DNA from: a virus
Taxonomy: Duplodnaviria; Caudoviricetes
Length of the DNA stretch: 53,370 nt
Reading direction: 5' to 3' (one strand)
Virus record (IMG/VR): IMGVR_UViG_3300010362_000020
Coordinates: 1 to 53,370 of that record
The notes under the pieces were generated by a model. The model did not search any database and had not been told where the DNA came from. It was given only the letters and a program-made list of their open reading frames with translations. Within the stretch, counting starts at the first letter, position 1. The number at the start of each line of letters is the position of its first letter. Below are positions 1-50,741 of this stretch, one piece after another. A program made the position numbers and the translations under genes.

Positions 1-1917
1 ATGCAGCCGGTCGTCGACATCCAGCCGCCGCTCGGTGCCCTCGACGTAGGTGCCCTTCACTTTGCCGATGGCTCGGTAGTCGAGGAGGGACTGGTAGAAG
101 GGGTCTCCGGTGGTGCGGGCGAGGCGTTCGAGGGTTTCGCGGTTGGTGCTCTCCTCGCTCTGGCTCTTCTTGGCGCGCCCGGGTTTGTGCTTGCGGGACT
201 TGATGTAGGCGAGGACTTGCGGGACCGAGTCGGGGTTGAAGGGCTCCTGCCAGAACCAGCGGTGGACGCTGACGACAGCGAGATCAAGTCCACCACCACC
301 TGATTCAGCTTGTCCTTCAGCTTCCGCAACAGCGGGGCGTGGGCGGGCCACTCCACGATCCAGTCGTCCAGCCGCTGGTGCAGGGCAACGATGTTTTCGA
401 GATACTTCGATAGCACCGCATCCTCGGCAGACGAGGACCTCGCGGAGGACGATCTTCTCGATGACTTTCGCGCGGGCATACAGCTCCTGTTTCAGTTCAG
501 CGGTGGGTTTGCCCTTCCGTGGCGTCCCCTTCCGGGTGAACGCACTCGCCTTGACGTGGAGCACGGTGGCCGCGGGTGGACGCGTCAGGCCTTGCTTGGG
601 GGTGAGCGGTGCCAGCGCCTCGGGCACGCAGGCCTGGAGCGCCTGGAGCCGCTCGCGCGCCTTGTCGGCGAGCTCCTGCTTGAACACCAGGAGCCGCGGC
701 CGATCGACCTTCAACCCGACCAGCTGGGCGGGTCGCAGCACCTCGGAGAGCAGCTTGTGCGTGTGGCGCATCGCCATCGTGTACTGGCCCTGGGCGATCA
801 GGTCGCCCACCACGCCGAAGCCGACGCGGTGCGTCTGCAGGCCGTCGACCGCGCCGTAGGTCGCGGGGTCGTCGTCGGCGGTGTGCTTCCACGGCCCGTA
901 CGCACTGTAGAAGGGCGCCCAGAACCCGAGCCCCCGCGGCAGGTCGCTCTGCAGGAAGTGGGCGAGCCACATCAGGTCGACCACCTGCACCGAACCGGCC
1001 TCGGTCATCAGCCTCGCATGCACCTGGCGCCCGAAGTCGTACTCGCGGTTCCACATCCATATGCATCCTGGCGACGCATACAGGCGGCGGAGCTCGTCGA
1101 GATACGGCCCGGCGTGCGGCACGGTGATCCCCTCATCGGGATGGCACGCCAGGTTGTGCCGGAGCAGCTGGTAGCTGACGTCGTCGGCGGTGATCTCGCC
1201 TTCGTCCTTGCCGCCGGCCTTGTCCGGCGTCTCGACGTCGCTGCTGATCGGATAGGCCGCCGGGTCCTGCATCCGCGCCGCTACCACCGTATCGACCCAG
1301 GCGCGGAACCACTCGACCGGCGGATCGATGACCAGGGAGTGCTCGCTCGCCGGCTTCCCGTGGTCGCGCGCTTCCTCCGCGCGCCGGAGATCCCAGAGCA
1401 CCGTGCCGATCAGGTTCGTGGCGCCGCGCTGCAGGAAGCTCGGGTGATAGGTCGGCACCACCCAGAAGCGATCGGTCGGGTCGCGGACGATCGAGCCGTG
1501 GAAGTCCTGCACCCGCACCTTCCGCTTGTGCTCCAGGTGCAGCACGCGCCGCAGCGCGCTCGCGCCCATCGCCACCACCACCGGGTGCCGCTCGGCGAGC
1601 GACGTCTCCAGGTAGGGGCAGTGCGCCATCGCGCTGTAGTACCAGGGCGCGCGCTCGTCGAACCAGTTGCCGGGTGGCTGACAGCTGATCGTGTTGTGGA
1701 CCCGGATCGCGTCGCGGCTCCACCCCAGGAGGTTCAGCAGGCGCGTCAGCATCCCGCCGGCGTCGCCCATGAACGGACGCCCGACCGCCGCCTCGACGTC
1801 GCCGAGCGCTTCGCCGACCAGGAGCAGCCAGCTGCCGCTCGGCCCATCGGCCGGGGCGAAGCCGCGCCCTCGCTCGTCGAGCACGCAGCCGCGGCAGCCG
1901 GGAGGATGCGGGAGCAC
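1..1917 (-). CDS. polA: Family A DNA polymerase with N-terminal family-4-like uracil-DNA glycosylase and 3'-5' exonuclease domains (SPO1-type architecture), partial at the left edge
   Basis: Manual translation from GTG 1917, which overlaps the upstream TAG. UDG motifs: CRGC, LLVGEALG, GRPFMG, HNTISCQPP, TYHPS. Exonuclease motifs: SDVET, WNREYD, YGAVD. PolA region: FNPDS...LLDYR..KVKGTY..DDRLH. The frame has no stop inside the window. Confidence 0.9.
   Translation of the reverse strand, partial: MLPHPPGCRGCVLDERGRGFAPADGPSGSWLLLVGEALGDVEAAVGRPFMGDAGGMLTRLLNLLGWSRDAIRVHNTISCQPPGNWFDERAPWYYSAMAHCPYLETSLAERHPVVVAMGASALRRVLHLEHKRKVRVQDFHGSIVRDPTDRFWVVPTYHPSFLQRGATNLIGTVLWDLRRAEEARDHGKPASEHSLVIDPPVEWFRAWVDTVVAARMQDPAAYPISSDVETPDKAGGKDEGEITADDVSYQLLRHNLACHPDEGITVPHAGPYLDELRRLYASPGCIWMWNREYDFGRQVHARLMTEAGSVQVVDLMWLAHFLQSDLPRGLGFWAPFYSAYGPWKHTADDDPATYGAVDGLQTHRVGFGVVGDLIAQGQYTMAMRHTHKLLSEVLRPAQLVGLKVDRPRLLVFKQELADKARERLQALQACVPEALAPLTPKQGLTRPPAATVLHVKASAFTRKGTPRKGKPTAELKQELYARAKVIEKIVLREVLVCRGCGAIEVSRKHRCPAPAAGRLDRGVARPRPAVAEAEGQAESGGGGLDLAVVSVHRWFWQEPFNPDSVPQVLAYIKSRKHKPGRAKKSQSEESTNRETLERLARTTGDPFYQSLLDYRAIGKVKGTYVEGTERRLDVDDRLH
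57..416 (-). CDS. Possible overprinted small protein in an alternative frame of polA
   Basis: GC3 bias switches to this frame over about 270-416. GTG 416 is preceded by GAGG (alternative ATG at 479). Helical-looking LSKYLENIVALHQRLDDWIVEW..LLRKLKDKLNQ. Confidence 0.3.
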   Translation of the reverse strand: MLSKYLENIVALHQRLDDWIVEWPAHAPLLRKLKDKLNQVVVDLISLSSASTAGSGRSPSTPTRSRKSSPTSSPASTNPGAPRRARARRAPTAKPSNASPAPPETPSTSPSSTTEPSAK

Positions 1918-2312
1918 TACTCGACCTGCGCCGCGCGCTTCCAGTCGACGATCCAGGTGTGCAGCACACCGGGCTGCGTGTCGTAGAAGATCGGCAGGCC
2001 GAGGTCAACCGCGAGCTGGTGTTCCGCACACGCGCCCTGGCTCGCTTGCCAGTCGCTCACCATCAGCACGGCGTCGCTGCGCCGGAGCAGTTCCAGGTCC
2101 CCGAGCAGCCAGACGTCGTCGGCCGCCTCGCCGTCGAAGAGCATCGTGTTGCCGTGGGGACAGAGGGCGACCGCGCCCGCCCTCCACACCATGAGCGCAG
2201 CGTCCTGCGCGCGCCAGATGTTGGCGAGCACGCGCCGCACCGTGGGCGCGCGGTAGGGGCCGGCGATGTAGACCACTGGCAGGATGAGCGGGGTGGTGGG
2301 CGAGGACGGCAT
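1917..2312 (-). CDS. DUF4406/DUF1937-like (nucleoside 2-deoxyribosyltransferase-like fold) protein
   Basis: VYIAGPY, CPH, DLELLRRSDAV, W..SQGACAE, LGLPIF motifs. Confidence 0.75.
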   Translation of the reverse strand: MPSSPTTPLILPVVYIAGPYRAPTVRRVLANIWRAQDAALMVWRAGAVALCPHGNTMLFDGEAADDVWLLGDLELLRRSDAVLMVSDWQASQGACAEHQLAVDLGLPIFYDTQPGVLHTWIVDWKRAAQVE

Positions 2313-2315
2313 CGT

Positions 2316-2995: not shown

Positions 2996-2998
2996 CTC

Positions 2999-4285
2999 TC
3001 ATTCCTGCCCCTTCGCGAGCAGGTTCTCTTCGACCAGCCGCACCCACTTGATGTAGTGCTTTCGGGTCGTCTCGGTGTCTTCGTGGCCGAGCATCATCGA
3101 CACCCACCCGAGCGGCTTCCCCTCCAGCAACGCGAGGGTCGCGAAGGTGTCGCGCAGGCAGTGAATCGTGAATCGCTTCCCCGTCTGCCCCTTGAGGGAC
3201 AGCGCCTCGCAGCCCTTGCGGAATGCGCCATACACGACCTTATCGGGGCGGCGCGGTGAGAGCACGCTCGTCAGGACGCAGTGCTGCGGTTCCTTGATCG
3301 GGCGCCGCCCGCGCTTCAACCAGGCCTCCCGGTTGGCGACCTTCAGCTTCCCGTACACTTCGACGACCCGTGGGCTCAGGTCGACGTACTGGTCGGCGCG
3401 GTGCGTCTTCGTATCCTTCTCGCCGACCCCGCGCTCATGACCGTCCTGCAGCTCCATCTTGCGGTGCGCTGCCGAAAACGCCTCGACGACGTGTCCTTTG
3501 CCGCCACTGAGATCCAGGTGGTCCCACTTCAGCGCGCAGGCCTCGCCGATGCGCGAGCCTTCGTCGGCGAGCCAGACGAAGAGGGGATACAGCTCGGGGT
3601 AATGCGCGTGCTGCCACTTCAGGAACGCGTCGACCTGCACGCGTGTCATCGGGTTCGGTTGTTGGTGCAGGACGATCCGCTTCTCGTTTTCGTTGCGGAC
3701 GTACTTGCCGATGCCTTCCGCGGGGTTGACGGTGAACTGCCCCGGCGGAAGCTCGTTCTTGGCCCACCCGAAAAACGCACTCAGCGTCGCCTGGCAGGCG
3801 AGCCGCGTCGGCAGCGGCACCTTGTTCTTCGCCAGCTGCACCTTCAGCACGTCCTTGATCCGCTGCCCGGTCATCGTCTCGTTGTGCATCGGCCAGCTGC
3901 GCATGATCGGCAGCAGGTGGTTCTTGAGCAGCCCCTTGTAGCCGAGGTACGTTGCCGCGGTACACATCTCCTTGACGTGTTCGGTGAGCCAACGCTGCGT
4001 CATCGTCTCGAACAGCACCGTGCCCTTGGGTGCCTGCGGCAGTGCGGGCACATTGAGCGCCCGCTTCAACCGCAGCTCGCGCTCGTACGACTCGCGCATC
4101 CCCATGACCTCCGCGGCGGCGTAGGGATAATGCGCTTCGGCTTCCGCCTCAGTCGCGAAGAACTTCGCCCCGGGGTGGCGTTCGCCGCCCAGACGCAGGT
4201 CGATGAAGACCCCCCAGGGGAGTTGTCCCCGAGCGGCGCGTTTCGCCTCGAAGCGAATCGTGAGGCCGGGCACCCGCGCTACCAT
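2999..4285 (-). CDS. int: Tyrosine integrase
   Basis: Catalytic set GSRIGEACALKW (R), KT, HCLR, LGH, ..HY; AGGAGG RBS; ends 3 nt from the tRNA CCA. Confidence 0.95.
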   Translation of the reverse strand: MVARVPGLTIRFEAKRAARGQLPWGVFIDLRLGGERHPGAKFFATEAEAEAHYPYAAAEVMGMRESYERELRLKRALNVPALPQAPKGTVLFETMTQRWLTEHVKEMCTAATYLGYKGLLKNHLLPIMRSWPMHNETMTGQRIKDVLKVQLAKNKVPLPTRLACQATLSAFFGWAKNELPPGQFTVNPAEGIGKYVRNENEKRIVLHQQPNPMTRVQVDAFLKWQHAHYPELYPLFVWLADEGSRIGEACALKWDHLDLSGGKGHVVEAFSAAHRKMELQDGHERGVGEKDTKTHRADQYVDLSPRVVEVYGKLKVANREAWLKRGRRPIKEPQHCVLTSVLSPRRPDKVVYGAFRKGCEALSLKGQTGKRFTIHCLRDTFATLALLEGKPLGWVSMMLGHEDTETTRKHYIKWVRLVEENLLAKGQE

Positions 4286-4294
4286 GACGCCCTC

Positions 4295-4609
4295 CTATTT
4301 GCCGAACGCGCGGCGGATCCAGCGGGTGTCGGTAATGGGATCGGGCGTCGGTTCGGCACGCGACGTCGGGTTGAACGCCCGCATCCACGCATCGAACTCG
4401 GTCTTCCGCACGAGCACGCGCCCGCGCGTCTTGCCCGCGATACGCACCTCGTGGTGCGGTAGCGGGTGCTCGGCGTCGTGGAGATAGCGCCGCAGCGTAC
4501 TCCGCGAGAGTCCGCTGTAGCGTACGAGCCGATCGAGATTGAAGTAACCCACGTCCTTGTCGTCGTCGTCGTCGTCGTGTGCATGCTTAGCCTCCACCTT
4601 TTCGCGCAT
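4295..4609 (-). CDS. xis: Excisionase-like (HTH_17/AlpA-type) DNA-binding protein
   Basis: YFNLDRLVRYSGLSRSTLRRY...RVLVRKTEFDAW; directly upstream of int; ATG 4609 preceded by GAGGT. Confidence 0.75.
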   Translation of the reverse strand: MREKVEAKHAHDDDDDDKDVGYFNLDRLVRYSGLSRSTLRRYLHDAEHPLPHHEVRIAGKTRGRVLVRKTEFDAWMRAFNPTSRAEPTPDPITDTRWIRRAFGK

Positions 4610-6059: not shown

Positions 6060-7600
6060 AGCCACTCCCGCAGCCGCGGGTCGGTCGTACACCGCTCGAC
6101 AATCGCCCCCGGGCTCCCGACCAGCCGCAACCCCGCCGCCGTCCGCGCCCTCGACAGCGCGACGTACAACATCCCCGGCGACTTGAAGAAGTGATCGCGG
6201 ATGTTGACCTGGACCTTGTCGAGGCTCAGCCCCTGGCTCTTATGCACGGTCGATGCATATGCAACTCGCAACGGCATGTAGCTGATGGCGCCGACGATCT
6301 CCCACTTGCCGTCGATGCGGTCGCCCTTCCCCTCTCGCAGCAGCTCGGCGCGCCGCACGCTGTCGCACGGCACCTTGACCTCGCGCGTCACCGGCAGCAC
6401 TTCCACCGTCTGGCGCGTGCGCTGCAGCCGCACCCAGGCGCTGCCGTCCTGCGCATCGATCACCGTGCCCAGATCGCCGTTGACGTACACCAGCTGTCGC
6501 GGGTGGTCCTCGGTGCGCCGGTTCGCCAGCACCATCACCAAGGCGCCGATCTTCAGCGGCAGCACCTCGGGGATGCCCCAGGTGTGCTTCGGCTTCTCCA
6601 GCGTGCCCCACTCGCTGCGGAGCTTCCCCCACCGCGCACTCGGGAAGTTCACGTCGTGTCCCGGCAGCTGCGCCATGCGGAGCCCGTTGTAGCGGTCGAC
6701 GCTCTCGTTCTTGGCGACGATCGTCGGGCCGTCGTAGCGGTCGTCGGTCTCGGCGGCGATCGCACTCCGGTCGCCGAAGTACTCCGCCACCTGGTGGCCC
6801 CGCCCGGCGCGGGCCGCGCGCAGCATCTGGATGAACTCCGGGTCACTCTGCCGGCGGATCTCGGTCAGCGTGACCGCGCTGCCGGCGAAGCGATCCCACT
6901 CGGGCGACTCAAACGCGTAGGTCGCCTTCACCGGCGCGAGCTGCAGGAAGTCGCCGACCAGCGTCAGGCCCATGGCGGGCGGCGGCGCGTCGTCGCCGTC
7001 GGTCCACTTGCCGAGGACGTAACCGCGGCCGTTCACCTCCTCGATGGCCTTCACCAGGTAGGTAAGCTGGTCGCCCGCCAGCATGCTCACCTCGTCGAGT
7101 ACCAGGCGCCGGACGCCGGCGCGCCACAGCCGTCCGAGCTGCGCGGTGAGCGCGCCGTTGATGTACTTCTCCTGCAGGCTCGCGGTGTCGAAGTAGCCGA
7201 GGATCGAGTTGATCGTCTCGCCGCCGAGATTGATCGCGGCGATCCCGGTGGTGGCGGCGAGCAGCAGCCCGGGCTCCTCCTCGGCCCAGGCCTTGGTCAG
7301 AAACGTCTTGCCGCTCCCGGCGGCGCCAAAGAGCCCGGAGAAGGGCTGGCCGAGCGCGGCCCGGATCTCCTCCGGCGTGCGCACCTCGGGGAGCGCGGCG
7401 GCGGGGAACGGCAGCGGCGGCTCCACCTCCACGACCGCCGCGCCTGTCGTCTTGCGGACGACGGGGATGACGGGCGCGGGCTCGGGGGGCGGGTCCTCGC
7501 GACGCCGCGGCATGACGACGGGCGGCGGCGCCGGGGAGACCGGGCCGCTCGTCCGTCCGAACACGAGCTCGGGATCAGGAGGCGCGTTCTGGCGGATCAT
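6056..7600 (-). CDS. Pif1/RecD-like SF1B helicase
   Basis: GAAGSGKT, DEVSM, GDFLQL, RRQSD, YASTVHKSQG, YVALSRAR. Confidence 0.92.
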   Translation of the reverse strand: MIRQNAPPDPELVFGRTSGPVSPAPPPVVMPRRREDPPPEPAPVIPVVRKTTGAAVVEVEPPLPFPAAALPEVRTPEEIRAALGQPFSGLFGAAGSGKTFLTKAWAEEEPGLLLAATTGIAAINLGGETINSILGYFDTASLQEKYINGALTAQLGRLWRAGVRRLVLDEVSMLAGDQLTYLVKAIEEVNGRGYVLGKWTDGDDAPPPAMGLTLVGDFLQLAPVKATYAFESPEWDRFAGSAVTLTEIRRQSDPEFIQMLRAARAGRGHQVAEYFGDRSAIAAETDDRYDGPTIVAKNESVDRYNGLRMAQLPGHDVNFPSARWGKLRSEWGTLEKPKHTWGIPEVLPLKIGALVMVLANRRTEDHPRQLVYVNGDLGTVIDAQDGSAWVRLQRTRQTVEVLPVTREVKVPCDSVRRAELLREGKGDRIDGKWEIVGAISYMPLRVAYASTVHKSQGLSLDKVQVNIRDHFFKSPGMLYVALSRARTAAGLRLVGSPGAIVERCTTDPRLREWL

Positions 7601-7613: not shown

Positions 7614-7889
7614 TCAGAGCGCGCGCGAGATGTGTTCCGCGCGTTTGCCTCGCGGCACCTCCCGGCACTCGAACTCGACGAGGCTGCCCGGGAGCAGCTC
7701 GCGCATCGTCAACCCGCCGTCGAGCCCGCTGGTGTGGAAGAAGAAGTCCTGCCCGACGTCCTCCACGGCGCCTTCGGTACAGCGGATGAAGCCGAACCCC
7801 CGTTCGGGGTAGGTGTGCTGGACGGTACCCCGCGCCCGTCCAGGACTGATGGTTGCCTCTGGCTGTCGCTGCTGCTGCTTGCCGCCCAC
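7614..7889 (-). CDS. Cold-shock domain protein
   Basis: RNP1 RGFGFI and RNP2 DFFFH. Confidence 0.85.
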   Translation of the reverse strand: MGGKQQQRQPEATISPGRARGTVQHTYPERGFGFIRCTEGAVEDVGQDFFFHTSGLDGGLTMRELLPGSLVEFECREVPRGKRAEHISRAL

Positions 7890-8662: not shown

Positions 8663-8932
8663 TCAGCCCTGGTAGAGCAGCGTGCGCACCGCCGCGTCCT
8701 TGGCTTCGAGCAGCTTCCGCAACGTCACGGTGCGCTCGGGGTTCATCGGATACTTCTCCGCGACCTTGTGTGCCAGATCGCAGAAGTCCTTGCTCGCCTC
8801 CTGCAGCTCCGCCGGCAGATGCGCATAGGTGAAGAACTGGAGCATCCGATCGGGCTTGGGCGGCGTCGGCTCCAGGCGCAGCCGTGGCTCGTCGTCGGGG
8901 AACTGCTCGGGGTCGACCTTGAAGCCGCCCAT
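8663..8932 (-). CDS. Small helical-hairpin protein (possibly Acb2/Tad1-like)
   Basis: FFTYAHLP..LQ..SK.F..LA...PERTVTLRKLLEAKDAAVR. Confidence 0.6.
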   Translation of the reverse strand: MGGFKVDPEQFPDDEPRLRLEPTPPKPDRMLQFFTYAHLPAELQEASKDFCDLAHKVAEKYPMNPERTVTLRKLLEAKDAAVRTLLYQG

Positions 8933-11689: not shown

Positions 11690-11908
11690 TCAGCCCTCGC
11701 TCCGGGCGGGCGGGAGCTTGCCCCGGCCGCCCCGCGACGCGTGGCCGCCCTTGCGTCCGGCCTCGGTGGCCTCTTCGCTGGTCCACTCGTGGGCGGTGCC
11801 CTTCTTGTGGGCCGCGATGCCCCCGAGGCTCGCGATGCGGCGGCGCTTCTCCAGCGGCATCGAGGCAAACCCGCGTCGGTCGATGTTGTGCTCCCGTCGG
11901 TCTGTCAT
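11690..11908 (-). CDS. KGG-repeat general stress protein (YciG/Con-10-like)
   Basis: RGFASM..EKRRRIASLGG..AH..GTAHEW.SEEA.EAGRKGG. Confidence 0.85.
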   Translation of the reverse strand: MTDRREHNIDRRGFASMPLEKRRRIASLGGIAAHKKGTAHEWTSEEATEAGRKGGHASRGGRGKLPPARSEG

Positions 11909-11943
11909 CGGTCCCCCTTCTTGACTGACTCGATGCATATGCA

Positions 11944-13374
11944 TCACTCGTCGTCCTCGACCGCCGCCGCTTCCGCCGGCAGCAAGCCCCGCGCGACGGC
12001 CTGCTGGAGCTCGGGGTCGTGGTGCGGCAGGCGCGGCTGGTAGTGGCCGCTGCCGAGCGGGTCGTCCCAGCCGGTATGGCGGTGACAGATCGGGACGAAC
12101 TCGCACTCGTGCTCCTTGCCGAACGGGCGGCACGCCCAGCTGCACGGCACGAGCTCGTCGAGCCGCGCCTGGAAGCGCTCGCTCGCCCACCCGTGGCCCT
12201 GGGTCTGCAGCTCGTAGAGGGCCCAGAGAATCTCCTGCCAGCGGCGCTCTTCGCCGAGGAAGCCGCGCAGCAGCCCCTGCAGCTGCTGGTCCTGGCGATT
12301 CATCGGGCCGAGAATGAAACAGACCTTGTCGAGCACCGACTCGGGCAGGAAGCGGACCCAGAACTCTTCCGGCGTGAGGCCTGGGTTGGACGATGCATAT
12401 GCTTTCCAGATCGGCCAGTCGCTCTCGTCGAGCGTCCACACGCCGCGGCGCCGGTGCGCCTTGGTCTTGCGCTTGGTCGTGCCGTCGTCGGCGATCCACT
12501 CGTAGCTCGGGAGCCAGTCGTCGGGCGCGAGCGGCGGATTGCCCGGCCGGCAGTAGCCGTAGCAGAGCGCCGACTGCTGCTTCTTGCGCTCGTCCTCGGC
12601 GCCGTCGTAGCGGTCGCGCACCCGTCGCCCTTTGTTCAGCCCGACGATGTAGAGCTCGGTGACCTCCCCGCCCCACACCTTGTCGGCGTCGACGGTGCCG
12701 AGTGCGAGCTGCGCATCGGTCTCCCACTGCTCCGCCCAGGCGTCGGACTCCCACCCCGTGGTCTTGCACTCGAAGTAGGCGAGGTTCTGCCCGCCGCGGC
12801 GCTGCGTCAGCAGGTCGGTGCGGATCTGGATCGCCTTCCCGCTGCACCCGCGGCGCAGGTGCTCGGCGGCATCGAGCGGGGGCGCGCCGCAGCTGCAGTC
12901 CAGGAAGTGCAGGCGCTCCTCTTCGACAGCGATCACGCGGTAGGCCTGGTGGAGCCAGGGCAGGAACTTCAGGCGCAGGACCCAGCCGAGCCCGCTGATG
13001 AGCGCACTCTGCTCGGCGATCGTCTCCTCGGTGTCGGGCCCGCCGAGGATGCCGCGATAGCCGCGGGCCTCGACCTCCGCCACGTACTCGGCGACCAGGG
13101 TCGCGATGATCGCCCGCACCTCGTCGAGCCCCGGGAGCCGGTCGACCACCATGAGCCGACTTGCATATGCTTCGAGGATCCGATGCACGTAGATCCCGGT
13201 GACCAGCGGCAGGGCGTGCTTCCGCAGCGTGATCCCGTAACTGTTCCCGGCGTGGTAGCCGAGGTAGCGGGCGCGTGGGCAGCGCTGCGTCCCGAGTTTG
13301 AAGCGGGAACGGTCGGTGAACCAGAGGAGCGGGATGGGCGTCGTCGTCGTCGTCGTCGGTGGCGTGATCGTCAT
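11944..13374 (-). CDS. PD-(D/E)XK exonuclease (Cas4/RecB-like)
   Basis: CPRARY, GIYVH, E, RTDL, ECKT, and C-terminal C..C.....CEF..IC cluster. Confidence 0.8.
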   Translation of the reverse strand: MTITPPTTTTTTPIPLLWFTDRSRFKLGTQRCPRARYLGYHAGNSYGITLRKHALPLVTGIYVHRILEAYASRLMVVDRLPGLDEVRAIIATLVAEYVAEVEARGYRGILGGPDTEETIAEQSALISGLGWVLRLKFLPWLHQAYRVIAVEEERLHFLDCSCGAPPLDAAEHLRRGCSGKAIQIRTDLLTQRRGGQNLAYFECKTTGWESDAWAEQWETDAQLALGTVDADKVWGGEVTELYIVGLNKGRRVRDRYDGAEDERKKQQSALCYGYCRPGNPPLAPDDWLPSYEWIADDGTTKRKTKAHRRRGVWTLDESDWPIWKAYASSNPGLTPEEFWVRFLPESVLDKVCFILGPMNRQDQQLQGLLRGFLGEERRWQEILWALYELQTQGHGWASERFQARLDELVPCSWACRPFGKEHECEFVPICHRHTGWDDPLGSGHYQPRLPHHDPELQQAVARGLLPAEAAAVEDDE

Positions 13375-13403: not shown

Positions 13404-13730
13404 TCAGGGATGGACCGGGGCGGCCCCCAGGGCGGGGTCGCCGCGGCTCAGCGGCCGCCGCCGACGGGGTGGCGGGGTCGCCTTCGCCGCGGTCTTGCCG
13501 ATCTTCGTGGCCAGCAGCGCCTTGAGCGGGACGCCGGTGACGGCGTGGAGTTTCACCGCGAGCCCGGCGGAGGGCACACGCTTGCCGCGCGCCAGCATCG
13601 AGATCATCGACTGGTTGCAGCCGATGGCTTCGGCGAGCGCCCGCTGGGACACGGGTGGCGGGCCGACGAGGTACGCCCGGAGACTCGGGGGCGGGGTGCG
13701 CCGAGCGGGCGCCGTGATGCGTTTCGTCAT
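13404..13730 (-). CDS. Cro-like XRE-family HTH regulator
   Basis: SQRALAEAIGCNQSMISMLARGKRVP; divergent from the cI-like gene. Confidence 0.85.
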   Translation of the reverse strand: MTKRITAPARRTPPPSLRAYLVGPPPVSQRALAEAIGCNQSMISMLARGKRVPSAGLAVKLHAVTGVPLKALLATKIGKTAAKATPPPRRRRPLSRGDPALGAAPVHP

Positions 13731-13792: not shown

Positions 13793-13991
13793 GTCCGCGA
13801 TGTGGCCCGGAGGGGCCGCTGTGCCTGGCACCGAAGGACGGGGGCTGTAACCGGTTGATTCGGCGGAAGAACGACACACCGGCAAGACACACCGATGACT
13901 CGGCAGATGCACACCTGCCACAGTGTCCGCGCTGCCGGGCGGTAGACGCCCCGGTGTCCTTCGTGTCCTCTGATGACAACTTGTGACACTA

Positions 13992-14020
13992 TTGCCAGTG
14001 ATGACTCGTGGTGATATTCT
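13992..14020 (+). promoter_or_regulatory. Sigma70-type promoter for the cI-like gene, with TGATGAC in the spacer
   Basis: TTGCCA-gtgatgactcgtggtga(17)-TATTCT. Confidence 0.55.
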
Positions 14021-14089
14021 TGTAGGCCCTCGCCTTTGATGCCGAAGCGGTCTCGTCGGAGAACGACTGACAAACGGAAGGAGCAACCG

Positions 14090-20209: not shown

Positions 20210-20216
20210 CCTCGGC

Positions 20217-30506: not shown

Positions 30507-30512
30507 ATACAT

Positions 30513-32804: not shown

Positions 32805-33156
32805 GGTCGTCAGCCGCTCGCCCGAGGCGATCCTCGACGAGATCGAGCTGCTGCTCACGCGGATGCGCCGGCAGCTCGCGCCGCCCGCGCCCGCGCCCGG
32901 CCTGCATCTCACACCGCGCGAGACCGACCAGATCGCCGAAGCGCTCGGCCTGGGCGCGCGGCCAACCGCGGCCTCGATGCTCGCCGCGATCGATCGCCTG
33001 GCCTCGGTGCGCATCGGCGACATCCGCATCCCGTTCACGCCCGGGCAGCTCGCCGAGCTCCAGCACCGCGCCGCCAAGCGCGGGCGCACGGTCGACGCGG
33101 AGATGCGCGCGGTGGTCGCGCGCGTCGAAGACGAACTGTTCTACAAAGGTGGATAG
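32797..33156 (+). CDS. Protein with C-terminal Arc/RHH-like domain
   Basis: IRIPFTPGQLAELQHRAAKRGRTVDAEMRAVV. Confidence 0.6.
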   Translation: MPEVVSRSPEAILDEIELLLTRMRRQLAPPAPAPGLHLTPRETDQIAEALGLGARPTAASMLAAIDRLASVRIGDIRIPFTPGQLAELQHRAAKRGRTVDAEMRAVVARVEDELFYKGG

Positions 33157-37590: not shown

Positions 37591-37760
37591 TGCCGCGCGT
37601 CACCGTCACCAAGGCGCCCAGCCCCGACAACGCGGTGGTCGTGAGCAAGAACATCAGTCCGTCGCTCGCCAAGGGCTCGGTCGGCGCGCAGGACTTCAAC
37701 AAGCGGACGACCGCGACCCGCCCGATCCGCGGCGGGCGGTCCCTGCAAGGGAGACGCTGA
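37590..37760 (+). CDS. Small basic protein
   Basis: TGATG coupling; ends GRSLQGRR. Confidence 0.6.
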   Translation: MPRVTVTKAPSPDNAVVVSKNISPSLAKGSVGAQDFNKRTTATRPIRGGRSLQGRR

Positions 37761-38328: not shown

Positions 38329-39129
38329 ATGGGTGCATTCGAGTCGGGTCAATCGTTCCTCGCTGGCGTGCTCGCCAAGCTCCCCACGGAGCAGCGCGCA
38401 CAGGCCGAGGCGATCTTCAACGCCGCGGAGGCCAAAGATGCCGTCACCCTCCTCGGGGACGGGGCGCTCGCCCGCAGCGACTACAGCCGCTCGATGGATT
38501 CGCTTCGTGAAAAGGAAAGCGCGTTGACGGAGTACTACACGCGGCTCGATGGCTGGTACACCGACAACAAGGCGGCGCTCGACGCCGCGCGCGCGGGCGG
38601 GGGTGGCGACCCCGCACCGGGCCCCGCTCCCGCCCCGGCCCCTGCGCCAGCGGCGGGCGGGAATGTCGCGCTGACCCAGGACGACATCCGTCGTATCGCC
38701 AACGACGCGATCAACGAAGCGGGCCGCGACTACATCGCGGTGTCAGCGTTTCTCGCCACGCAGGGCGCGCGGCACTCGCATCTGTTCGGCGAGCCGCTCG
38801 ACATGACCGAACTGGTGGCGAACCCCAAACTCGGCAAACCCGTGTACGGCCAACCCGGGCGGGTCTACTCGCTCCAGGACGCGTATCTCGAAAAGTACGG
38901 CGAGCGGATCCAGCAGAAGCACAAAGAGGCCGAAGACAAGCGGATCAACGACGAAGTCGACAAGCGCTGGGCCGAGCGGCTCAAGCAGACCCAGAGCGGG
39001 CATCCCTTCCCGCTCCGGCAAGAATCCTCGCCGCTCGACGTCCTGCAGACCAAGGAAGGCCCCGCCCAGCACACGCTCGACTCCGCGGTCGCGGAGTACG
39101 AGCGCCTGGTCGCGGCCAAACAAGGCTAA
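38329..39129 (+). CDS. Putative capsid scaffolding protein
   Basis: Helical, DYSR motif; directly upstream of the MCP. Confidence 0.7.
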   Translation: MGAFESGQSFLAGVLAKLPTEQRAQAEAIFNAAEAKDAVTLLGDGALARSDYSRSMDSLREKESALTEYYTRLDGWYTDNKAALDAARAGGGGDPAPGPAPAPAPAPAAGGNVALTQDDIRRIANDAINEAGRDYIAVSAFLATQGARHSHLFGEPLDMTELVANPKLGKPVYGQPGRVYSLQDAYLEKYGERIQQKHKEAEDKRINDEVDKRWAERLKQTQSGHPFPLRQESSPLDVLQTKEGPAQHTLDSAVAEYERLVAAKQG

Positions 39130-40232: not shown

Positions 40233-40272
40233 CCGCTGGGCTAGATGCATAGGCATCTCAAAGGAGTTCATC

Positions 40273-41184: not shown

Positions 41185-41898
41185 ATGGCGGAAGACTTCG
41201 GCTATGCGTGGCGGACGGTGCGGCTCTACTGCCCGTCCGCCCCGACGTTTCTCGCGCGCGAGTGGGTGCAGGCCGCCTGGAAGCAGCTCCTGGCCGCGCG
41301 CCGCTGGAGCTTCATGCGGGGCACGCTCGCGGTCCCCTACGACGGCAGCTCGCCCTACGTCACGATGCCCTCCGACTTCGCCTCGTTCGACATCGTGGTC
41401 GATACCGCGCAGCAGAAGAAGATCTGCACCGACCAGTCGCTCGCCGAGCTCACCTGCGCCGATCCGATGCACGCCGTGACCGGCCCGCCCCGCGCGCTCC
41501 TCCCGGCGACCCCCGGCCCGAACGGCGAAGTGCGCTACGAGGTCTATCCGCACGGCAGCGCGGCGACCTTCAGCGGGTATTACAACCGCCAGGGCCCACG
41601 CCTCACCGACGGGCAATTCTTCTCCGGGGTGCTGGCCGATGGCGCCGAGGTCCTGGTCGCCGGTGCGCTCGCGCAGGCGGCGCTCTGGCCGGGCACCGGC
41701 GAGAAACCGAACCCCTACTTCAACGCCGGCCTCGCGCAGACCAAGGCGAACGAGTTCAAGTACGGCGTGCAGATGCTCTCGCTGCGCGACGACGAACAGG
41801 CGCCCGCCGATCTCTGGGACAGTTGGGAGCAAGCGGACTGCGGCTGCGGCTGCAGCGCCGGCGGTGATCCACGCGCCACAGATGCCTGTGCATGGTAA
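41185..41898 (+). CDS. Head-tail adaptor/ring-like protein
   Basis: RWSF, MPSDF, GPP, VYP, LVAGALA pattern. Confidence 0.6.
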   Translation: MAEDFGYAWRTVRLYCPSAPTFLAREWVQAAWKQLLAARRWSFMRGTLAVPYDGSSPYVTMPSDFASFDIVVDTAQQKKICTDQSLAELTCADPMHAVTGPPRALLPATPGPNGEVRYEVYPHGSAATFSGYYNRQGPRLTDGQFFSGVLADGAEVLVAGALAQAALWPGTGEKPNPYFNAGLAQTKANEFKYGVQMLSLRDDEQAPADLWDSWEQADCGCGCSAGGDPRATDACAW

Positions 41899-46103: not shown

Positions 46104-46737
46104 CCGCGAGCTCCTCAGCGAGCTGCAGTACGTCCTGATCGAACCGCCCGACGGCGGCGACGCCTGGCCGTCCCTCATCTGGACGCGTGACGAAGTGCTC
46201 GACGCCCTCAACGCGGGCGTCCGCGCGCTCATCCGCGACACGCACCTGGTCGTCACGCGCGTGGAGCTCCCGGTCGCCGCGCTCGCCACGCGCATCGATC
46301 TCCCCGCCGACTGGCTCGCGACCGCGCACCTGGTCTGGCGCGCCGCCGACGGCACGCGCACGCCGCTCGGCCCGGTCGACGCCTTCGAGGGCGACCTCGC
46401 GGTGCCCGGCTGGGAAACCACGCCCGACCTGCCGCTCGGCTACGCCGATCTCGATGGCCCCACCCTGACGCTGCGGCTCGTGCCCACCCCCGAGGCGCCC
46501 GGGACGATCGAGCTGCTCTACATCGCCAAGCCGCCCGAGGTCGCTCCGGTCGTCGGCGGCCCCGAGCTCGCGCTCCCGCTCGCGCCCGAGTTCGACTCCG
46601 CGCTCAAGTACTCCGCGCTCGGGACGCTCCTCCGCAAGGTCGGGCGCCTGCTCGATGACGAGCGCGCGCGCTACGCCGAGCGCCGCTACGAGCTCACCCA
46701 GACCGCCGCGGCGATCCTGCTCGGAGGGTGGGCCTGA
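46096..46737 (+). CDS. Head-tail adaptor/ring-like protein
   Basis: WTRDEVLDALNAG, LPADW, LVPTP, Y...P, FDSAL. Confidence 0.6.
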   Translation: MTDRELLSELQYVLIEPPDGGDAWPSLIWTRDEVLDALNAGVRALIRDTHLVVTRVELPVAALATRIDLPADWLATAHLVWRAADGTRTPLGPVDAFEGDLAVPGWETTPDLPLGYADLDGPTLTLRLVPTPEAPGTIELLYIAKPPEVAPVVGGPELALPLAPEFDSALKYSALGTLLRKVGRLLDDERARYAERRYELTQTAAAILLGGWA

Positions 46738-49700
46738 TGGCCGAGCAGATCAGCCGCCGCGCCAACAACGTCACCACGGCGGCCTTCGACTCGCCGTTCG
46801 AGACGCACACGGTGCGCTTCGGCTCGGGCACGCTCAACCTCAAGGACTCGCTCGATGCGATGGAGGGCTGGTCGCGCCACACCAACGTCTGGCACGAGCA
46901 GGAGAACGAAGCGACCGCGCGCCCGGGCGAGACCGTCGTCGCCACGCACGGCGCGACGAGTGGGACGGTGCATTCGATCCGCAAGCTGCGCGACCCCGAC
47001 AGCGACGTCACCACGCGGTTCTGGGGTGTGGAAGGCGACCTGCACCGCGGGCTCTCGGGGGCGACCACGGTCGTCTCCTCCGGCTACAGCGGCTTCCCCC
47101 TCGCCCTCCTCCCGCACCGGCCCACGCTCTCCGGCGAGCCCTGGCTCTTTGTCGGGGACCGCGCCAAGATGGCGAAGGTCCGCGCCGACGGCCTGGCGCT
47201 GCCGATCGGCCTGCCCATCCCCACCGGCCTCACCACCGCCCTCGGCACCGAGTACACCCGCCCGATCGCGCTCTGCGAGTCCGCCGACAGCACGCAGGCT
47301 GCGAACTGGGTCCCCGCGCCCGGGCACGACAACGTCACCGGCGCGGTGGTCGGCACGCCCGACGCGCCGCTGGCCGATCCCGGCGACTCGCCCTCAGGGA
47401 CCGAGGGGATCTACTGCGTCACCAACCCGGGCACGACCACCGGCGGCTACGACTCCTGGTGGGGCGTCGCCGTCACGCGGGATCTCACCCAGCTCAATGA
47501 AGTGGGCGGCTCGGGCCTGCTCGAAGCCAGCGACGACGATCTCGTGCGCGTCTGGATGAAGACGTCGCACCCGCACCTGATGGCGGAGATCCGCATCTAC
47601 ATCGTCTGCAGCCCGAGTTTCGATCCGCTCGTGCTCCCGGGCACGCCCAACGACGCCGGCAGCAATCAAGATGCATATGTAAAGGCCTTCCGCCCGAACG
47701 ACTACGTGCAGTTCTTCCAGGCGCAGCAGGCGCAGATCGACGCGGCGGAAGCGGCGCGCATCCACGCCCTGCGCGACGCCGATGCCAAGGCACGCGGCTA
47801 CGACGACACGCGTCCCAGCTGGCAGACCACCCGCGAGCAAGCCGACTCGGCGCGCGCCCAGTCGTTCCAGATCGGCGCCGGCTCGCAGCAGTGGTTCGGC
47901 TACGGCTTCACCGGCGCGCCGCTGCGCCGCGGCGACTTCCAGCGCATCGGCAACACCCAGGGGCGCGACTGGTCGACCGTCACCGGCGTCATCCTCTACG
48001 TCCGCACCACCGAAGACGGCAACGGGCCGATCGCGATCGGCTTCGACGATCTCGCCCTCACCGGCGGCTGGGGCCCCGACACCGCGCAGCCGGGCGCGCA
48101 GCCCTACGACTACCGCATCACCAACTACGACCCGCGCACCGGCGCCGAAAGCAACGGCAGCGCCGAGCAGCTCGCGACCGCGGTGATCGATCCGCTGCGT
48201 CGCCACATCAGCGTCGACCCGCCGGCCTACGGCGACTCCGAGATCCGCCAGCGCATCTACCGCCGCGGCGGCTCACTCATCGACGACTGGTACTTCGTCG
48301 GCGAGAACGACGGCGACGGCCAGGTCTTCGACGACGGCCTGAGCGACGCCGAGATCGCGGCGGCCGGGACGCTGCCGACCGATCACTTCCAGCCCGTGCC
48401 CACCCTCCGCGACACGACCGGCGAGACCGTACTCGCGCAGCCGCTCCCGGCGCTCTGGGGCCCGGTCGAAGGGATGCTCTTCGGATGCGGCGATCCGCAC
48501 CGGCCCGGGCACGTCTACTTCTGCATCGCCGGCCAGCCGGATCACTGGTCCGCCTCGGGCAACGTCGAAGTGTGTGCGCCCTCCGAGGAGCTGATGAACG
48601 GCGGGATCCTCGGGCACCAGGCGTTCGTCTTCAGCCGTCTGCGGCTCTACTTCCTCTATCCGAATCTCACCGGCGCGCAGGGCGTCACGGCCACCCCCGC
48701 ACTCTGCACGCGCGGCCTCGTCGCGCGGTGGGCGTTCTGCACCGGGCCCGGGGGATTCGTCTTCTTCGTGGCCGAGGACGGCGTCTTCGCGACCCAGGGC
48801 GGCCCCGAGGACTGGCTCTCGGAAGCGATCAACCCGCTCTTCTACGGCACCGCCGTCAACGGCTACGTGCCGATCGACAAGACCGTCCCCGAGGCGCTGC
48901 GCCTGACCTGCTGGGAGAACGATCTCTTCTTCCAGTACCAGGACGTCGGGGGCAATCGCCAGGTGCTGGTCTTCTCGATCCTGCAGAAGTTCTGGCGGCA
49001 TTACACGTTCGGCCGGCCCCCGGCGGTCCTCCAGGGCGAGGACGAGGACGTGCTCCTCATCGGCGGCCGCGCGACCGGCGCGAGCTACTCCCATGACGGC
49101 ACCTCGGACGACGGCCTCCCCATCGCGTGTCGCATCCGCACGGGCTCGGCCTCCGGCGGCCGGCGCGAGGAGAAGCTCTTTGGCGATCTCTTCCTCGACG
49201 CCGATTGCGCCGGCACCACGCTCACCGCGCAGGTCTTCCTCAACGAAGAGACGCACGCCAACACCGCGATCGCCGTCAGCGGCGGTGGCAGCGGCCGCGA
49301 GCGCTTCCTGGTCGATGCCTTCGGGGTGAACCCGCAGAAGGCGCACTCGATTGCCTGCGAGCTCTCCTGGTCGACCGCGGGCCCGCCGCCGACGATCTAT
49401 CAGCTCGGGTATGCGATCACGCTGCAGCCCGATCTCACCAACACGCGGGTGACCAACTGGGACGACCTCAACTCGCCCGACGAGGTCTGGCTCACCGGCG
49501 TCACGATCGACTGCGACGCCGGCGGCGTGACCAAGCACGTGCTCATCGAGCGCGACTTCAGCGGGGTGCGGACCCTGGTCGCCGAGTTCGATGTCCAGAG
49601 CGACAACCGGCACAAGTTCAAGTTCTCCTGGCCGGCGGTCCCCGCGCATATGGTCCGCATCCGCCCCGAGGCCGACTGCGTCCCGTGGCTGCTCTACCGC

Positions 49701-50741
49701 GCCGACTGGATCTACCTCGAAGAGCCGCCGCGCATCGCCGGGTGGGACATCCACTTCGAGAACCAGTGGGACCAGTACTACACGGGGCTCGATCTCTACT
49801 GCGACACCGGCGGCGTCGAGAAGCAGATCGAGGTCTACGTCGACGACGTGCGCCTAGTGAACCCGGCGACGAGCGAGCCCTTCTGGCGCGTCACCGCGCT
49901 CGGGCGGCAGGTCGTGCATCTGACGCTCCCGTGGGGGCGCGGCCACGTCTTCCGCTTCGTGGCGATCGACCCCAACCCCGGGCTGCTCTACACGCACCGG
50001 TGGCACCTGGACCCGGAGCCCTCGGAGCAGACCAACTGGAACCAGAACTTCTCGATCCTCGGCACACGCGCGGACAAGTGGCTCAAGGCGGTCATCTTCG
50101 AGTGCGACACCTACGGGCAGGACAAGCAGGTCCAGGTCGAAGTCGACGGCACGGTGGTCGAGACGCTCACCGTCAACACCACCGGGCGGCGCGTCGTGCA
50201 GCTCGCGCTCGCCGACCAGCACCTCGGACGCGTGTGGCGTCTCTTCCCGGTCGACGCGCACCCGGGCCGGCTCTACTCCGCCGAACCGATCTTCGATGAA
50301 GAGCCCTTCCAGCTCACGCGCTGGGAGACGCAGGAGACCAACCACGGGCTGCCGGGCTGGTTCTACCCGCTCTACGGCCACATCACGCTGAAGTCGACCG
50401 CCGAGGTCACGCTCACCACCGCCGTGCAGCACAACCAGGTCGGCGACACCACGACACATGCATATGCAATCCCTGCCACGGGCGGACAGAAGCAGCGCCG
50501 GTTCCTCCACGGCTTCCAGGCCGTCAAGGGGGTGCTGATCAAGTACGTGCTCACGAGCGCCGCGCCCTTCTGGCTCTATCGCGACGAGACCGTGATCGTC
50601 ATTCAGCCCTGGGGCGCGGCCCGCGCGATCACCGTGCAGCCCTTCGGCAACGACGACCTCGACCCGTCCCGGCCCATGACCCACGCCGTGCTGGCCGCGC
50701 AAGCCAGTGGCGGCGCTGTTCCCACCGCCGCGCCGGGCTAG
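46737..50741 (+). CDS. Large tail nozzle/hub-like protein
   Basis: 1334 aa; RIYRRGG, beta-propeller-like centre, tandem C-terminal repeats; follows the adaptors. Confidence 0.65.

Follow-up and report, generated by a model that had tools for sequence, protein, structure and literature searches.

A dispersed 14-base palindrome in an uncultivated soil phage and a candidate ribbon-helix-helix (RHH) binder encoded downstream of the DNA polymerase gene

The record of an uncultivated soil phage analysed here (53,370 nt, referred to in full as the window) carries a 14-base palindrome, GATGCATATGCATC, dispersed along its length. The motif consensus is approximately S-W-W-GCATATGC-W-W-S, and GCATATGC is its core. 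Genes were called with a simple GC3/codon model. The features are as follows, with a strand for genes and promoters and none for copies of the palindrome, and with mismatches counted against GATGCATATGCATC:

1 to 1884, minus strand: 5' part of a UDG-PolA fusion gene, cut off by the left edge of the window and continued on contig L153.
1054 to 1067: intragenic copy, two mismatches, in the UDG-PolA fusion gene (GGA TGC ATA TGG ATG).
6252 to 6265: intragenic copy, one mismatch, in an SF1 helicase gene (V-A-Y-A-S; rare codons GTT GCA TAT GCA).
11932 to 11945: perfect copy on the stop codon of a 476-aa gene (11944-13374, minus strand), upstream of a small KGG-repeat gene.
12392 to 12405: intragenic copy, two mismatches, in the 476-aa gene (K-A-Y-A-S), peculiar to this record.
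13160 to 13173: intragenic copy, three mismatches, exact core, in the 476-aa gene (E-A-Y-A-S), also in relative G005.
19625 to 19638: copy with two mismatches and exact core, between the genes at 19667-20203 and 19419-19583.
20197 to 20210: copy with two mismatches and exact core; a 178-aa Cys-rich gene starts at its central ATG.
21269 to 21282: intragenic copy, two mismatches, core GGATATGC, in an ORF found only in this record.
21878 to 21891: intergenic copy, two mismatches, exact core, in the early accessory region.
23814 to 23842, minus strand: promoter-like site TAGACA-17-TAGAGT, leading leftward into the variable early accessory genes between 23.8 and 19.4 kb.
23823 to 23836: perfect copy GATGCATATGCATC, which occupies the spacer in that promoter-like site.
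30506 to 30519: weak copy GATACATATGTATC, two mismatches, core ACATATGT, over the terL start.
40244 to 40257: copy GATGCATAGGCATC, one mismatch, after the capsid gene stop and ahead of the next gene's ribosome-binding site.
41881 to 41894: weak copy GATGCCTGTGCATG at the 3' end of the gene at 41185-41898; doubtful.
47670 to 47683: weak copy, three mismatches, effectively a half-site, in a 1334-aa gene; doubtful.
50457 to 50470: intragenic copy, three mismatches, exact core, in the 1334-aa virion gene (H-A-Y-A), also in G005.

A preliminary description of the window had labelled several of its genes. The helicase (Pfam), terL (PHROG_2) and MCP (tblastn to annotated major head proteins) labels stand, while the “exonuclease” (11944-13374) and “nozzle” (46737-50741) had no family match in family searches, and we therefore treat these two labels as putative.

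At up to three mismatches, GATGCATATGCATC matches 15 sites in the window, against a mean of 0.86 and a largest value of 3 in 100 dinucleotide-preserving shuffles, and the core occurs nine times (0.21 expected; largest value 2 in 100 such shuffles). The same description had reported about 14 copies, with perfect ones at 11932 and 23823, and nine cores against about 0.4 expected. All 14 positions and all nine cores were recovered, with a lower expectation by shuffling, and the weak match at 41881, absent from that list, is the fifteenth. Motif words are the top-enriched 8- and 10-mers of the record among those that codon usage does not explain. Under a codon-preserving null, the coding sequences hold eight sites (up to three mismatches) where 0.41 are expected and four exact cores where 0.06 are expected, and none of 300 synonymous shuffles reached either number. 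The palindrome is genuine, and it is maintained by selection even within genes.

The preliminary description had pointed to rare codons in the intragenic copies, with GCA-TAT-GCA as its example, and rare they are. Among the codons for its amino acid, GCA accounts for 4.1% (Ala) and TAT for 11.8% (Tyr); the figures for ATA (Ile) and GTT (Val) are 0.5% and 1.4%. One of the three ATA codons in the whole record sits in the 1054 to 1067 copy. In relatives, where the same peptide is encoded, the rare codons that spell the motif are found only in motif-bearing genomes. The helicase peptide PLRV(A/G)YAST is present in 7/7 relatives, and the motif is spelled only in motif-bearing G000, G001 and G005; G002, G003, G004 and G006 have GCC/GCG and TAC, or GGG, instead. 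The sequence at 1054 is identical in G001 and G005, and is GGC CAC/AGC/GCG ATC in motif-free G002, G003 and G004. The copy at 40244 is an insertion, found in 8 of 19 genomes, all of them motif-bearing, and in none of nine motif-free ones. Of the doubtful copies, the one at 47670 (GAT GCA TAT GTC) is shared with G001 and missing from G005, and the place equivalent to 41881 in G005 has GATGCATGTGCATG. Whole genomes hold 3-10 cores when motif-bearing and 0-1 when motif-free. In these sequence comparisons, the sites are maintained at the DNA level. The copy over the terL start is a special case: its right half is ATGTATCAC, and ATGTATCAC or GTGTATCAC begins terL in motif-free relatives too, its positions +/-4, where specificity appears to lie (see below), are A/T, and it is probably not a true operator.

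Across nine genomes (relatives included), the sites gather at gene boundaries, where 64 of 83 are found. Adjacent sites are often phased: among 25 pairs no more than 70 bp apart, 16 are spaced 20-24 bp and eight exactly 22 bp, which fits cooperativity on one face of the DNA. By our own ORF criterion, the central ATG is the likely start codon at 22/83 sites, with a Shine-Dalgarno sequence adjoining the motif. At 20197 to 20210 this is a GAGGA ribosome-binding site, and the ORF downstream of the 19625 to 19638 copy might alternatively begin at the central ATG of that copy. This placement would suit an element acting in RNA, as a small hairpin or a translational operator near start codons. We nevertheless regard such an element as the most improbable of the readings weighed here, since the possible stem is just 5 bp, the outer positions vary without compensation (e.g., GATGCATATGCAAG) and the core sequence is fixed, the copies in promoter spacers are upstream of the transcript, and the 22-bp phasing points to DNA.

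Only one of the 15 window sites is located in a promoter. The copy reported earlier to fill a -35/-10 spacer does so in TAGACA-17-TAGAGT (23842-23814, minus strand), which is one of five promoter-like sites in the 11-29 kb region (0.7 expected). In G005, TTGACA plus the motif at position 64348 is the positional analogue of this copy, and the 23823 to 23836 site appears to serve an early leftward promoter as its operator.

Within the window, clear DNA-binding domains are confined to the cI-like (14138-14719), Cro-like (13404-13652) and Xis-like (4295-4609) HTH proteins, and dimeric HTH repressors typically have symmetric operators, so that one of the three might act on the palindrome as the immunity repressor. 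Several observations make this quite unlikely. The 485-bp cI/cro interval contains its own repeats and two promoter-like sites and, as had been remarked before, no copy of the palindrome; relatives of the cI-like and Cro-like proteins occur in motif-free G002 and G003; and the integrase/Xis pair is missing from motif-bearing G001 and G015. These proteins also lack the residue-to-base covariation that the RHH protein described below displays. On the first two of these grounds, neither the cI-like nor the Cro-like protein is the likely binder. A weak FitA-like RHH match in the window (32797-33156) is not the likely one either, its relatives being present in 8/8 genomes compared, motif-free ones among them.

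The best candidate binder is likely an unannotated RHH-like protein of 62-91 aa, encoded just past the left end of the window. In complete relatives, its gene is the last of a short operon directly downstream of the DNA polymerase gene. A clustering of 20 genomes found it in eight, all of which (8/8) carry the core and the region downstream of polA. The operon is preceded by a copy of the motif in 8/8, directly after a TTGACA -35 box in 6/8, and the best-conserved placement of all is within the spacers of TTGACA-TAnnnT promoters, where another operator follows 22 bp further down. The operon partners of the gene vary between genomes, and none of the eight scanned (0/8) matches a toxin family, as a partner in a type II toxin-antitoxin pair would.

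For the phage of the window itself, metagenome contig L153, analysed over 5,845 of its 16,976 bases, overlaps window positions 1-123 at 100% identity and carries the polA reading frame on as far as a stop codon at 1260. It has three or four copies of the palindrome, with sites at 1286, 1332 and 1370, the last within TTGACT-18-TAAGAT, and after this operator cluster it encodes an RHH protein of the S-G type (2657-2857). The only public run that contains the window also contains L153, with 0 differences. The 123-base identical overlap, the continuity of frame and the co-occurrence in one run make it likely that the RHH gene belongs to this phage. The preliminary description had proposed that one dimeric protein binds along both early and late genes, and this is still the best reading, although none of the proteins it listed as candidates is the likely binder.

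The RHH assignment comes from predicted structure. The AlphaFold monomer (pLDDT 76.8) has an extended segment at 21-28, followed by helices at 30-43 and 47-61. Its top Foldseek matches are mostly RHH proteins (MatP, ParG, CopG, Arc, omega, AmrZ), with MatP first, which superpose with an rmsd of ~1 A at E-values (0.7-9) that are not significant. As a homodimer it scored 0.78, compared with 0.00 for the best of three controls, a mark reached by 20/30 proteins solved as one-chain pairs and 1/23 solved as single chains, and one that may mirror likeness only, because solved structures include many RHH dimers. Contact agreement between runs was at least 93%, and partner pLDDT at least 76. The predicted dimer contacts are 24-24, 25-23 and 28-21/22, which form an antiparallel ribbon, together with 25-51, and residues 22, 24 and 26 are on the outer face. 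A beta-strand with two helices and a ribbon-joined homodimer, which characterize RHH proteins, are thus present in the prediction. In sequence searches, the protein fell outside the curated RHH families, as one of eight members hit Pfam ParG at an E-value (0.011) that misses the cut-off, and a PDB sequence/profile search with the protein returned chance-level matches only.

The identity of these matches raises the possibility that the RHH protein binds the sites and has a mainly architectural role, bridging or condensing the DNA or marking it for segregation or packaging, as in MatP/matS or ParG/omega. In E. coli, MatP reads a 13-14 bp palindrome with its RHH domain at a couple of dozen dispersed sites, and uses extra domains for tetramerisation and MukBEF contact to organise a chromosome macrodomain. 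The MatP RHH domain and ParG are among the best Foldseek matches, one of eight members weakly matches Pfam ParG, and the sites extend across early and late regions and into genes, where promoter control makes no sense. The phage protein, however, is a bare RHH of 62-91 aa, whose AlphaFold model consists of the RHH core and has no additional bundle or coiled-coil domain of the kind that would support MatP-like oligomerisation. Its best-conserved sites, in promoter spacers with an operator 22 bp downstream, have the layout of a repressor's, and most genomes with the RHH family have only 1-3 sites. A ParA-like partner is also missing, with no ParA family member among 50 window proteins scanned. 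A parS-like centromere is unlikely on this account and in view of the scatter of the sites (over 50 kb, rather than in clustered repeats beside a ParA gene as in ParG/omega systems). Altogether, we consider an architectural role improbable, though less so than the HTH proteins.

Protein and palindrome also covary. Residues 24/26/27 of the RHH protein were compared with the core found up to 2.5 kb upstream for 71 loci (57 distinct RHH sequences), which had been fetched by a peptide pattern permitting only [KR]RYLL[DS][GQS]IP. Sequences with L-S-G have GCATATGC in 21 cases (21/21 informative) and another core in 0, with one having no core and six too little upstream DNA. With L-D-Q, the core is TCATATGA in ten and TCATATGA plus CCATATGG in one (six none; two with short upstream DNA); with L-D-S, it is TCATATGA in four (one none); with L-D-G, it is CCATATGG in three and TCATATGA in one; and with T-D-Q, it is ATCCATGGAT. 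The three residues track the core bases in 41 informative sequences without crossover. Eight of the 57 sequences have sufficient upstream DNA and no core, and at one D-S locus GCATATGC lies 3.4 kb upstream, away from a promoter context. Whole-genome counts agree: TCATATGA is absent from every S-G genome, and GCATATGC from 8/10 of the D-type genomes searched, with two copies in G043 and one in G049. In a tree built with residues 24/26/27 masked, the D-S/TCATATGA sequence L142 falls within the S-G clade, and D-G/CCATATGG arose at least twice. At least one co-switch of residue and core is independent, and on this tree the covariation rests on few deep events, namely one basal split and a handful of switches.

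Such covariation bears on the idea that a host factor, either a global regulator or a nucleoid protein, reads the motif and that the phage gathered sites to exploit it. The core shifts together with residues of a protein that the phage encodes, even within one clade, and that protein's own operon has the motif in its promoter; a host factor is accordingly very unlikely as the reader.

We consider it probable, on these sequence patterns, that the palindrome is the operator of a small phage-encoded dimeric RHH protein that represses itself and at least one early promoter, and that it has spread to genome-wide sites. The RHH protein would repress its own promoter through operators in and beside the -35/-10 spacer, and at least one early promoter of the window (23.8 kb). 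The operator would have expanded in this lineage to about 13-18 sites per genome, put where the cost is lowest, i.e., in intergenic DNA, on start and stop codons, and in A-Y-A codons recoded with rare synonyms. When occupied, the extra sites may damp read-through transcription, giving either delayed negative feedback in lytic growth or silencing of a prophage. The RHH protein alone does not account for the expansion, because some S-G genomes (G040 and G050) hold one copy each. A bolder version, to which we give tentative credence, well below that of the repressor reading, is an unrecognised RHH family with a recognition code, in which S-G, D-Q/S and D-G at 26/27 would specify G, T and C at +/-4 and residue 24 the centre. 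In one phage lineage it would have become a genome-wide network for elongation roadblock and silencing, a symmetric RHH counterpart of the stoperators, with sites that recoding, not only synonymous but also non-synonymous, placed in start codons and essential genes.

RHH repressors that regulate their own synthesis include P22 Arc, Mnt, CopG, MetJ and plasmid omega, which are small beta-alpha-alpha dimers with an operator in or beside their own promoter and neighbouring dimers about two helical turns apart. The predicted dimer and the own-promoter operator of the phage protein resemble this class, and the 8-bp palindromic core recalls the MetJ box. It differs in having no detectable sequence relationship to these proteins, a conserved N-terminal arm (RPYS..YTA), and a regulon enlarged to 13-18 sites that are dispersed over a 70-kb phage and include some in ORFs and over start codons. 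The phiC31 repressor, from a high-G+C temperate phage, offers a further parallel, since it binds conserved inverted repeats (CIRs) at many positions in the early region; the sequence, length and repressor class differ from those here.

Multi-site phage repressor networks are known, and the present case is a variant of them. In L5 and other Cluster A mycobacteriophages, the gp71-type repressor has many short sites across the genome, both in promoters and in the small intergenic gaps within operons, and these stoperators are proposed to stop both initiation and elongation (PMC9283540). Each L5 site is an asymmetric 13-mer oriented with transcription, and the repressor binds it as a monomer that has an HTH and a second domain (PMC9283540). 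The likeness lies in many short sites for one phage protein, as we infer it here, with 64/83 of ours at gene boundaries. The differences are that our site is a symmetric 14-mer, that its apparent binder is a 62-91 aa RHH dimer rather than the cI-like protein or a monomeric two-domain HTH repressor, and that several sites are inside coding sequence and held there by recoded codons. L5-type networks have more than 20 sites; here there are 13-15 in the window and 3-4 more on L153. The SAS/ESAS of Cluster K mycobacteriophages is a lineage-specific repeat tied to ATG starts of non-structural genes, and it is a non-palindromic 13-mer that includes the ribosome-binding site, 3-7 bp upstream of starts and in one orientation, with an unknown partner (PMC3203893). 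Our motif is likewise a short lineage-specific repeat associated with ATG starts, but it is a palindrome that contains the start codon, it also occurs in promoter spacers and genes, and it has a candidate cognate protein.

If the repressor reading is true, this phage would represent a second, mechanistically distinct route to genome-wide self-silencing, with an RHH dimer and symmetric sites in place of the monomeric HTH protein and asymmetric sites of L5. Within essential genes, codon choice in this phage yields to the putative regulatory sites. The case would also illustrate that a motif found all along a window can have its binder encoded outside the assembled fragment. Natural variation between S-G, D-Q/S and D-G, paired with GC, TC and CC cores, would form a specificity series for testing base recognition by RHH proteins and, later, for engineering.

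The network formed by the 14-base palindrome with core GCATATGC is a real feature of this genome. Every copy listed in the preliminary description is present in the window, and matches at ≤3 mismatches number 15 against 0.86 expected, with nine copies of the core against 0.21. Once codon-driven words are set aside, the top enriched 8- and 10-mers of the record are words of the motif, and non-coding DNA, 12% of the record, wholly or partly contains seven of the 15 sites. Eight sites are fully intragenic against 0.41 under the codon-preserving null that had been proposed as a check (0/300 synonymous-codon shuffles reached eight), and exact intragenic cores number four against 0.06 expected from such shuffling. 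Seven of these eight sites are read as GAT-GCA-TAT-GCA-TC, the sole frame without Met/His or Cys/Ile(ATA) runs, and the codons at intragenic copies are as rare as had been claimed (GCA, 4.1% of Ala; TAT, 11.8% of Tyr; GTT, 1.4% of Val; ATA, 0.5% of Ile). The shuffle nulls and the word enrichment rule out the view that the motif is an artefact of chance, codon usage or composition.

The record (53,370 bp, linear class, ∼77% complete, G+C 69.5%) carries 74 genes as called with a simple codon/GC3 model, arranged in two blocks:

1-27,659, leftward gene block: UDG-DNA polymerase A fusion, integrase, helicase, cold-shock-domain protein and HTH pair
Within 1-27,659: SF1 helicase
Within 1-27,659: divergent Cro-like/cI-like HTH pair
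28,467-53,370, rightward gene block: terminase large subunit, capsid protein and tail fibre (off the right end)

Between the blocks, a 22-bp unit, CGCGCCAGCGTGCAGGGGGCAG, is repeated 3.9 times in tandem at 28276-28360 and is followed at 28420-28445 by an AT-rich AATTGTGAA repeat; the 28276-28445 repeats may serve as an origin, as a pac site or as a regulatory array. The cro/cI interval contains direct repeats (TGATGACAACTTGTGACACTATTG / TGATGACTCGTGGTGATATTCTTG, 13971-14022) beside two promoter-like sites, and these are likely the cI/Cro operators, distinct from the palindrome. A tyrosine integrase and an HTH_17 (Xis-like) gene (2999-4609, minus strand) sit amid the replication genes; the pair is present in only four of 20 compared genomes and so looks like a mobile lysogeny cassette. 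The early genes also include a KGG-repeat stress-protein homologue and a cold-shock-domain protein (11690-11908 and 7614-7889, both minus strand). Megablast with both window halves found no DNA-level relative among 50,697 deposited phages, and the capsid protein shares just 25% identity with those of two Tunturiibacter phages. Neither the capsid protein nor the RHH (ribbon-helix-helix-like) protein considered below had a relative in a host search of 185,579 species genomes.

Relatives were collected as eight records of ∼70 kb via a 476-aa protein and 29 further records via the capsid protein. At ≤2 mismatches the motif occurs in three of the first eight and 10 of the further 29, and it is missing from several complete genomes. 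Among 20 full genomes (G numbers), exact cores number 3-10 in ten, one in G012 and 0-1 in nine motif-free genomes, from which CATATG is nearly absent. Most genomes with the RHH family have one to three operators, and it is the ∼70-kb phages of the window's group that have expanded to 5-10 exact cores. Within genes, enrichment is clear in G000 (the window's own phage) and G005, weaker in G001, G009 and G015, and nil in G008 and G018. Synonymous sites in the helicase bear out the conservation that had been suggested as a check: all seven genomes encode PLRV(A/G)YAST, and the motif spelling GTT GCA TAT GCA is used in G000, G001 and G005, with GTC GCC TAC GCA, GTG GCG TAT GCG or GTG GGG TAC GCG in G002, G003, G004 and G006. 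Similarly, polA reads GGA TGC ATA TGG in motif-bearing genomes versus GGC CAC/AGC/GCG ATC TGG in the others, and the motif copy that follows the capsid gene is inserted sequence, seen in eight of 19 genomes, all motif-bearing. These comparisons establish, at the level of sequence, that the motif is selected as DNA.

Three relatives contain repeats of other kinds. G026 (L113-L116) has tandem 10-bp units, TCAGTACTGA, that make up GATCAGTACTGATC arrays in intergenic DNA (15 half-words; for example, 37660-37690 and 38372-38392), which may be a further lineage-specific operator system. Throughout the G020 record (L109-L112), CACGCGTG occurs 31 times against ∼4.5 expected, with 23 of the 31 inside coding sequence, and one promoter, with its AAAGCATATGCTTC operator, is present there three times over. 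The motif-free G002 (L023-L026) shows strong enrichment of an asymmetric word, CGGTGGTGATC, with 19 copies of CGGTGGTGA on both strands against 0.8 expected.

For nine genomes, 83 sites were assigned a placement by regex and ORF position. This set excludes G010 and G014, which nearly duplicate G005 and G015; heavy overlap is also seen for G008 and G018. Twelve sites lie in promoter spacers, 22 have their central ATG at the likely start codon, 26 are otherwise intergenic, four lie over stops and 19 are intragenic. Sequence analysis establishes both the enrichment of the motif and its placement in promoters. For 16 of 25 adjacent pairs the spacing is 20-24 bp (exactly 22 bp in eight), which fits dimers cooperating along one face of the DNA. 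In the window, the copy at 23823 does fill a -35/-10 spacer, as had been noted (TAGACA-17-TAGAGT), and four more sites follow within 4.4 kb downstream of this promoter, where the early genes are unique to the window's record. Among the window's four “start” sites, 20197 makes a convincing case; 11932 and 19625 are ambiguous, as better-placed starts lie downstream, and the copy at 30506 is probably not an operator. Since the motif contains ATG and the flanks between the ribosome-binding site and the start are free, gene starts are the cheapest places for planting sites, which may explain the start-codon association without a translational role.

Three small proteins were considered as the binder of these sites. 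The gene of a 178-aa Cys-rich protein (19667-20203, minus strand; CCDFCSARP...WAACxxCG; 26 metagenome homologues) has one site over its start and another after it, and the protein showed an apparent correlation with the motif in the first eight relatives. It was rejected because a profile search found it in only two of 29 records and because complete motif-bearing genomes lack it. Despite a confident AlphaFold model (pLDDT 88) it has no fold match in the PDB, and tblastn against deposited phages gave no match. An 89-aa protein (8663-8932) was likewise rejected, being in just three of 29 records. When proteins from 20 genomes were clustered, a single small family, the RHH proteins, stood out instead, with members in G001, G005, G009, G010, G014, G015, G018 and G020, all core-bearing, and in none of the nine motif-free genomes. 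The motif-bearing records without it (G000, G008 and G012) are all fragments, and G000 ends inside polA. The RHH gene always closes a short operon situated immediately downstream of polA, which encodes a uracil-DNA-glycosylase/PolA fusion of ∼1,000 aa conserved in the whole group, and it is convergent with the tail-fibre genes. A toxin-antitoxin module was rejected as an account of this operon, as the eight partners scanned include no toxin family. Each of the eight motif-bearing genomes with the RHH gene has a motif copy upstream of the operon, directly after a TTGACA -35 box in six. Profile searches also detected diverged homologues in the motif-free G017 and G007: that of G017 has RRYLLDS in place of RRYLLSG, and the same promoter position carries AATCATATGATT and a second site, CCATCATATGG; that of G007 reads KRYTLDQ, with AATCCATGGATT at the promoter position.

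The window's phage itself very probably encodes an RHH protein, as judged from L153, a metagenome locus overlapping the window's left end (the initial 5,845 bases of a contig of 16,976). The 123 bases at the start of L153 match window 123..1 exactly, and the polA frame is unbroken across the join (587 window codons plus 419 on L153, ∼1,006; 967-1,269 in relatives). The relevant features are:

Window 1-1884 plus L153:1-1260: UDG-PolA fusion, off the window's left end
L153:1286, 1332 and 1370: motif sites, after the polA stop at 1260
L153:2657-2857: RHH gene, S-G type, 66 aa, last of four ORFs after the sites

A degenerate extra site lies just ahead of 1286, and the site at 1370 is inside TTGACT-18-TAAGAT. 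The sole public run that contains the window also contains L153:1-3300 with 0 differences, and one contig of that run extends 1,129 bases past the first base of L153; since the run is possibly the source sample itself, this agreement does not count as independent evidence.

Using the family profile, we assembled 28 viral and 43 metagenome loci (71 loci, 57 distinct sequences), grouped them by RHH residues 24/26/27 and scored cores within 2.5 kb upstream. The pattern used for fetching loci limited the strand variants that could be found and was blind to the operator.

Upstream operator cores by RHH residues 24/26/27
L-S-G: 21 with GCATATGC; 0 with TCATATGA or CCATATGG; 1 with none; 6 with too little upstream
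L-D-Q: 10 with TCATATGA; 1 with both TCATATGA and CCATATGG; 6 with none; 2 short
L-D-S: 4 with TCATATGA; 1 with none
L-D-G: 3 with CCATATGG; 1 with TCATATGA
T-D-Q: ATCCATGGAT

Many of these operators are directly preceded by a TTGACA box. In whole-record counts, TCATATGA is at zero in every S-G genome and GCATATGC at zero in eight of the 10 D-type genomes searched (two copies in G043 and one in G049). A maximum-likelihood tree with the three residues masked separates an S-G clade from a D clade (support 96/94); the G017 sequence (D-S/TCATATGA) falls inside the S-G clade, and D-G/CCATATGG arises at least twice, few independent events being counted because the tree is built on 49 columns with many forks unresolved. 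These data demonstrate that the operator core covaries with a phage protein predicted to be an RHH dimer. The possibility that the motif is a restriction or methylation site was set aside, since it would leave both this covariation and the promoter-spacer placement unexplained; for such sites avoidance is normal, not enrichment.

Sequence searches of Pfam and the PDB did not recognise the RHH protein. Its AlphaFold model has an extended segment followed by two helices, and the great majority of its Foldseek neighbours are RHH proteins (MatP, ParG, CopG, RHH antitoxins, AmrZ, Arc, omega, CdbA and PutA), matched at ∼1 Å rmsd over ∼34 residues with non-significant E-values. Homodimer prediction gave a score of 0.78, compared with 0.00 for the highest-scoring of three controls; this is a predicted result, from a type of model that knows RHH dimers well. 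Of proteins solved as one-chain pairs, 20 of 30 attained the homodimer mark, as did one of 23 solved as single chains. Contacts agreed to at least 93% between runs, with pLDDT of at least 76. The predicted contacts 24-24 and 25-23 describe an antiparallel ribbon, and contact 25-51 would place L25 in the core and hence, by alternation, R22 and residues 24 and 26 outward. The outward-facing positions are those that covary with the operator centre and position ±4.

We infer that the RHH protein binds the motif sites. It would repress its own promoter and the 23.8-kb promoter, and single sites inside operons would impede RNA polymerase. The position of the RHH gene at the end of the early unit fits action late in lytic growth; action in a prophage would resemble that of P22 Mnt. 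Arc, Mnt, MetJ, CopG and omega are alike in fold and autoregulation, without a dispersed network.

The nearest concept is the L5 stoperator network, which, as described in PMC9283540, consists of asymmetric, oriented sites for a monomeric HTH immunity repressor, two defining features that the palindrome lacks. The start-associated sequences of Cluster K share the start-codon association but, unlike the palindrome, are asymmetric, RBS-containing and orphan (PMC3203893). A literature search at the level of titles and abstract openings found neither this motif nor an RHH-based genome-wide phage network described. The RHH proteins and their operator variants provide a testable series for protein-DNA recognition.
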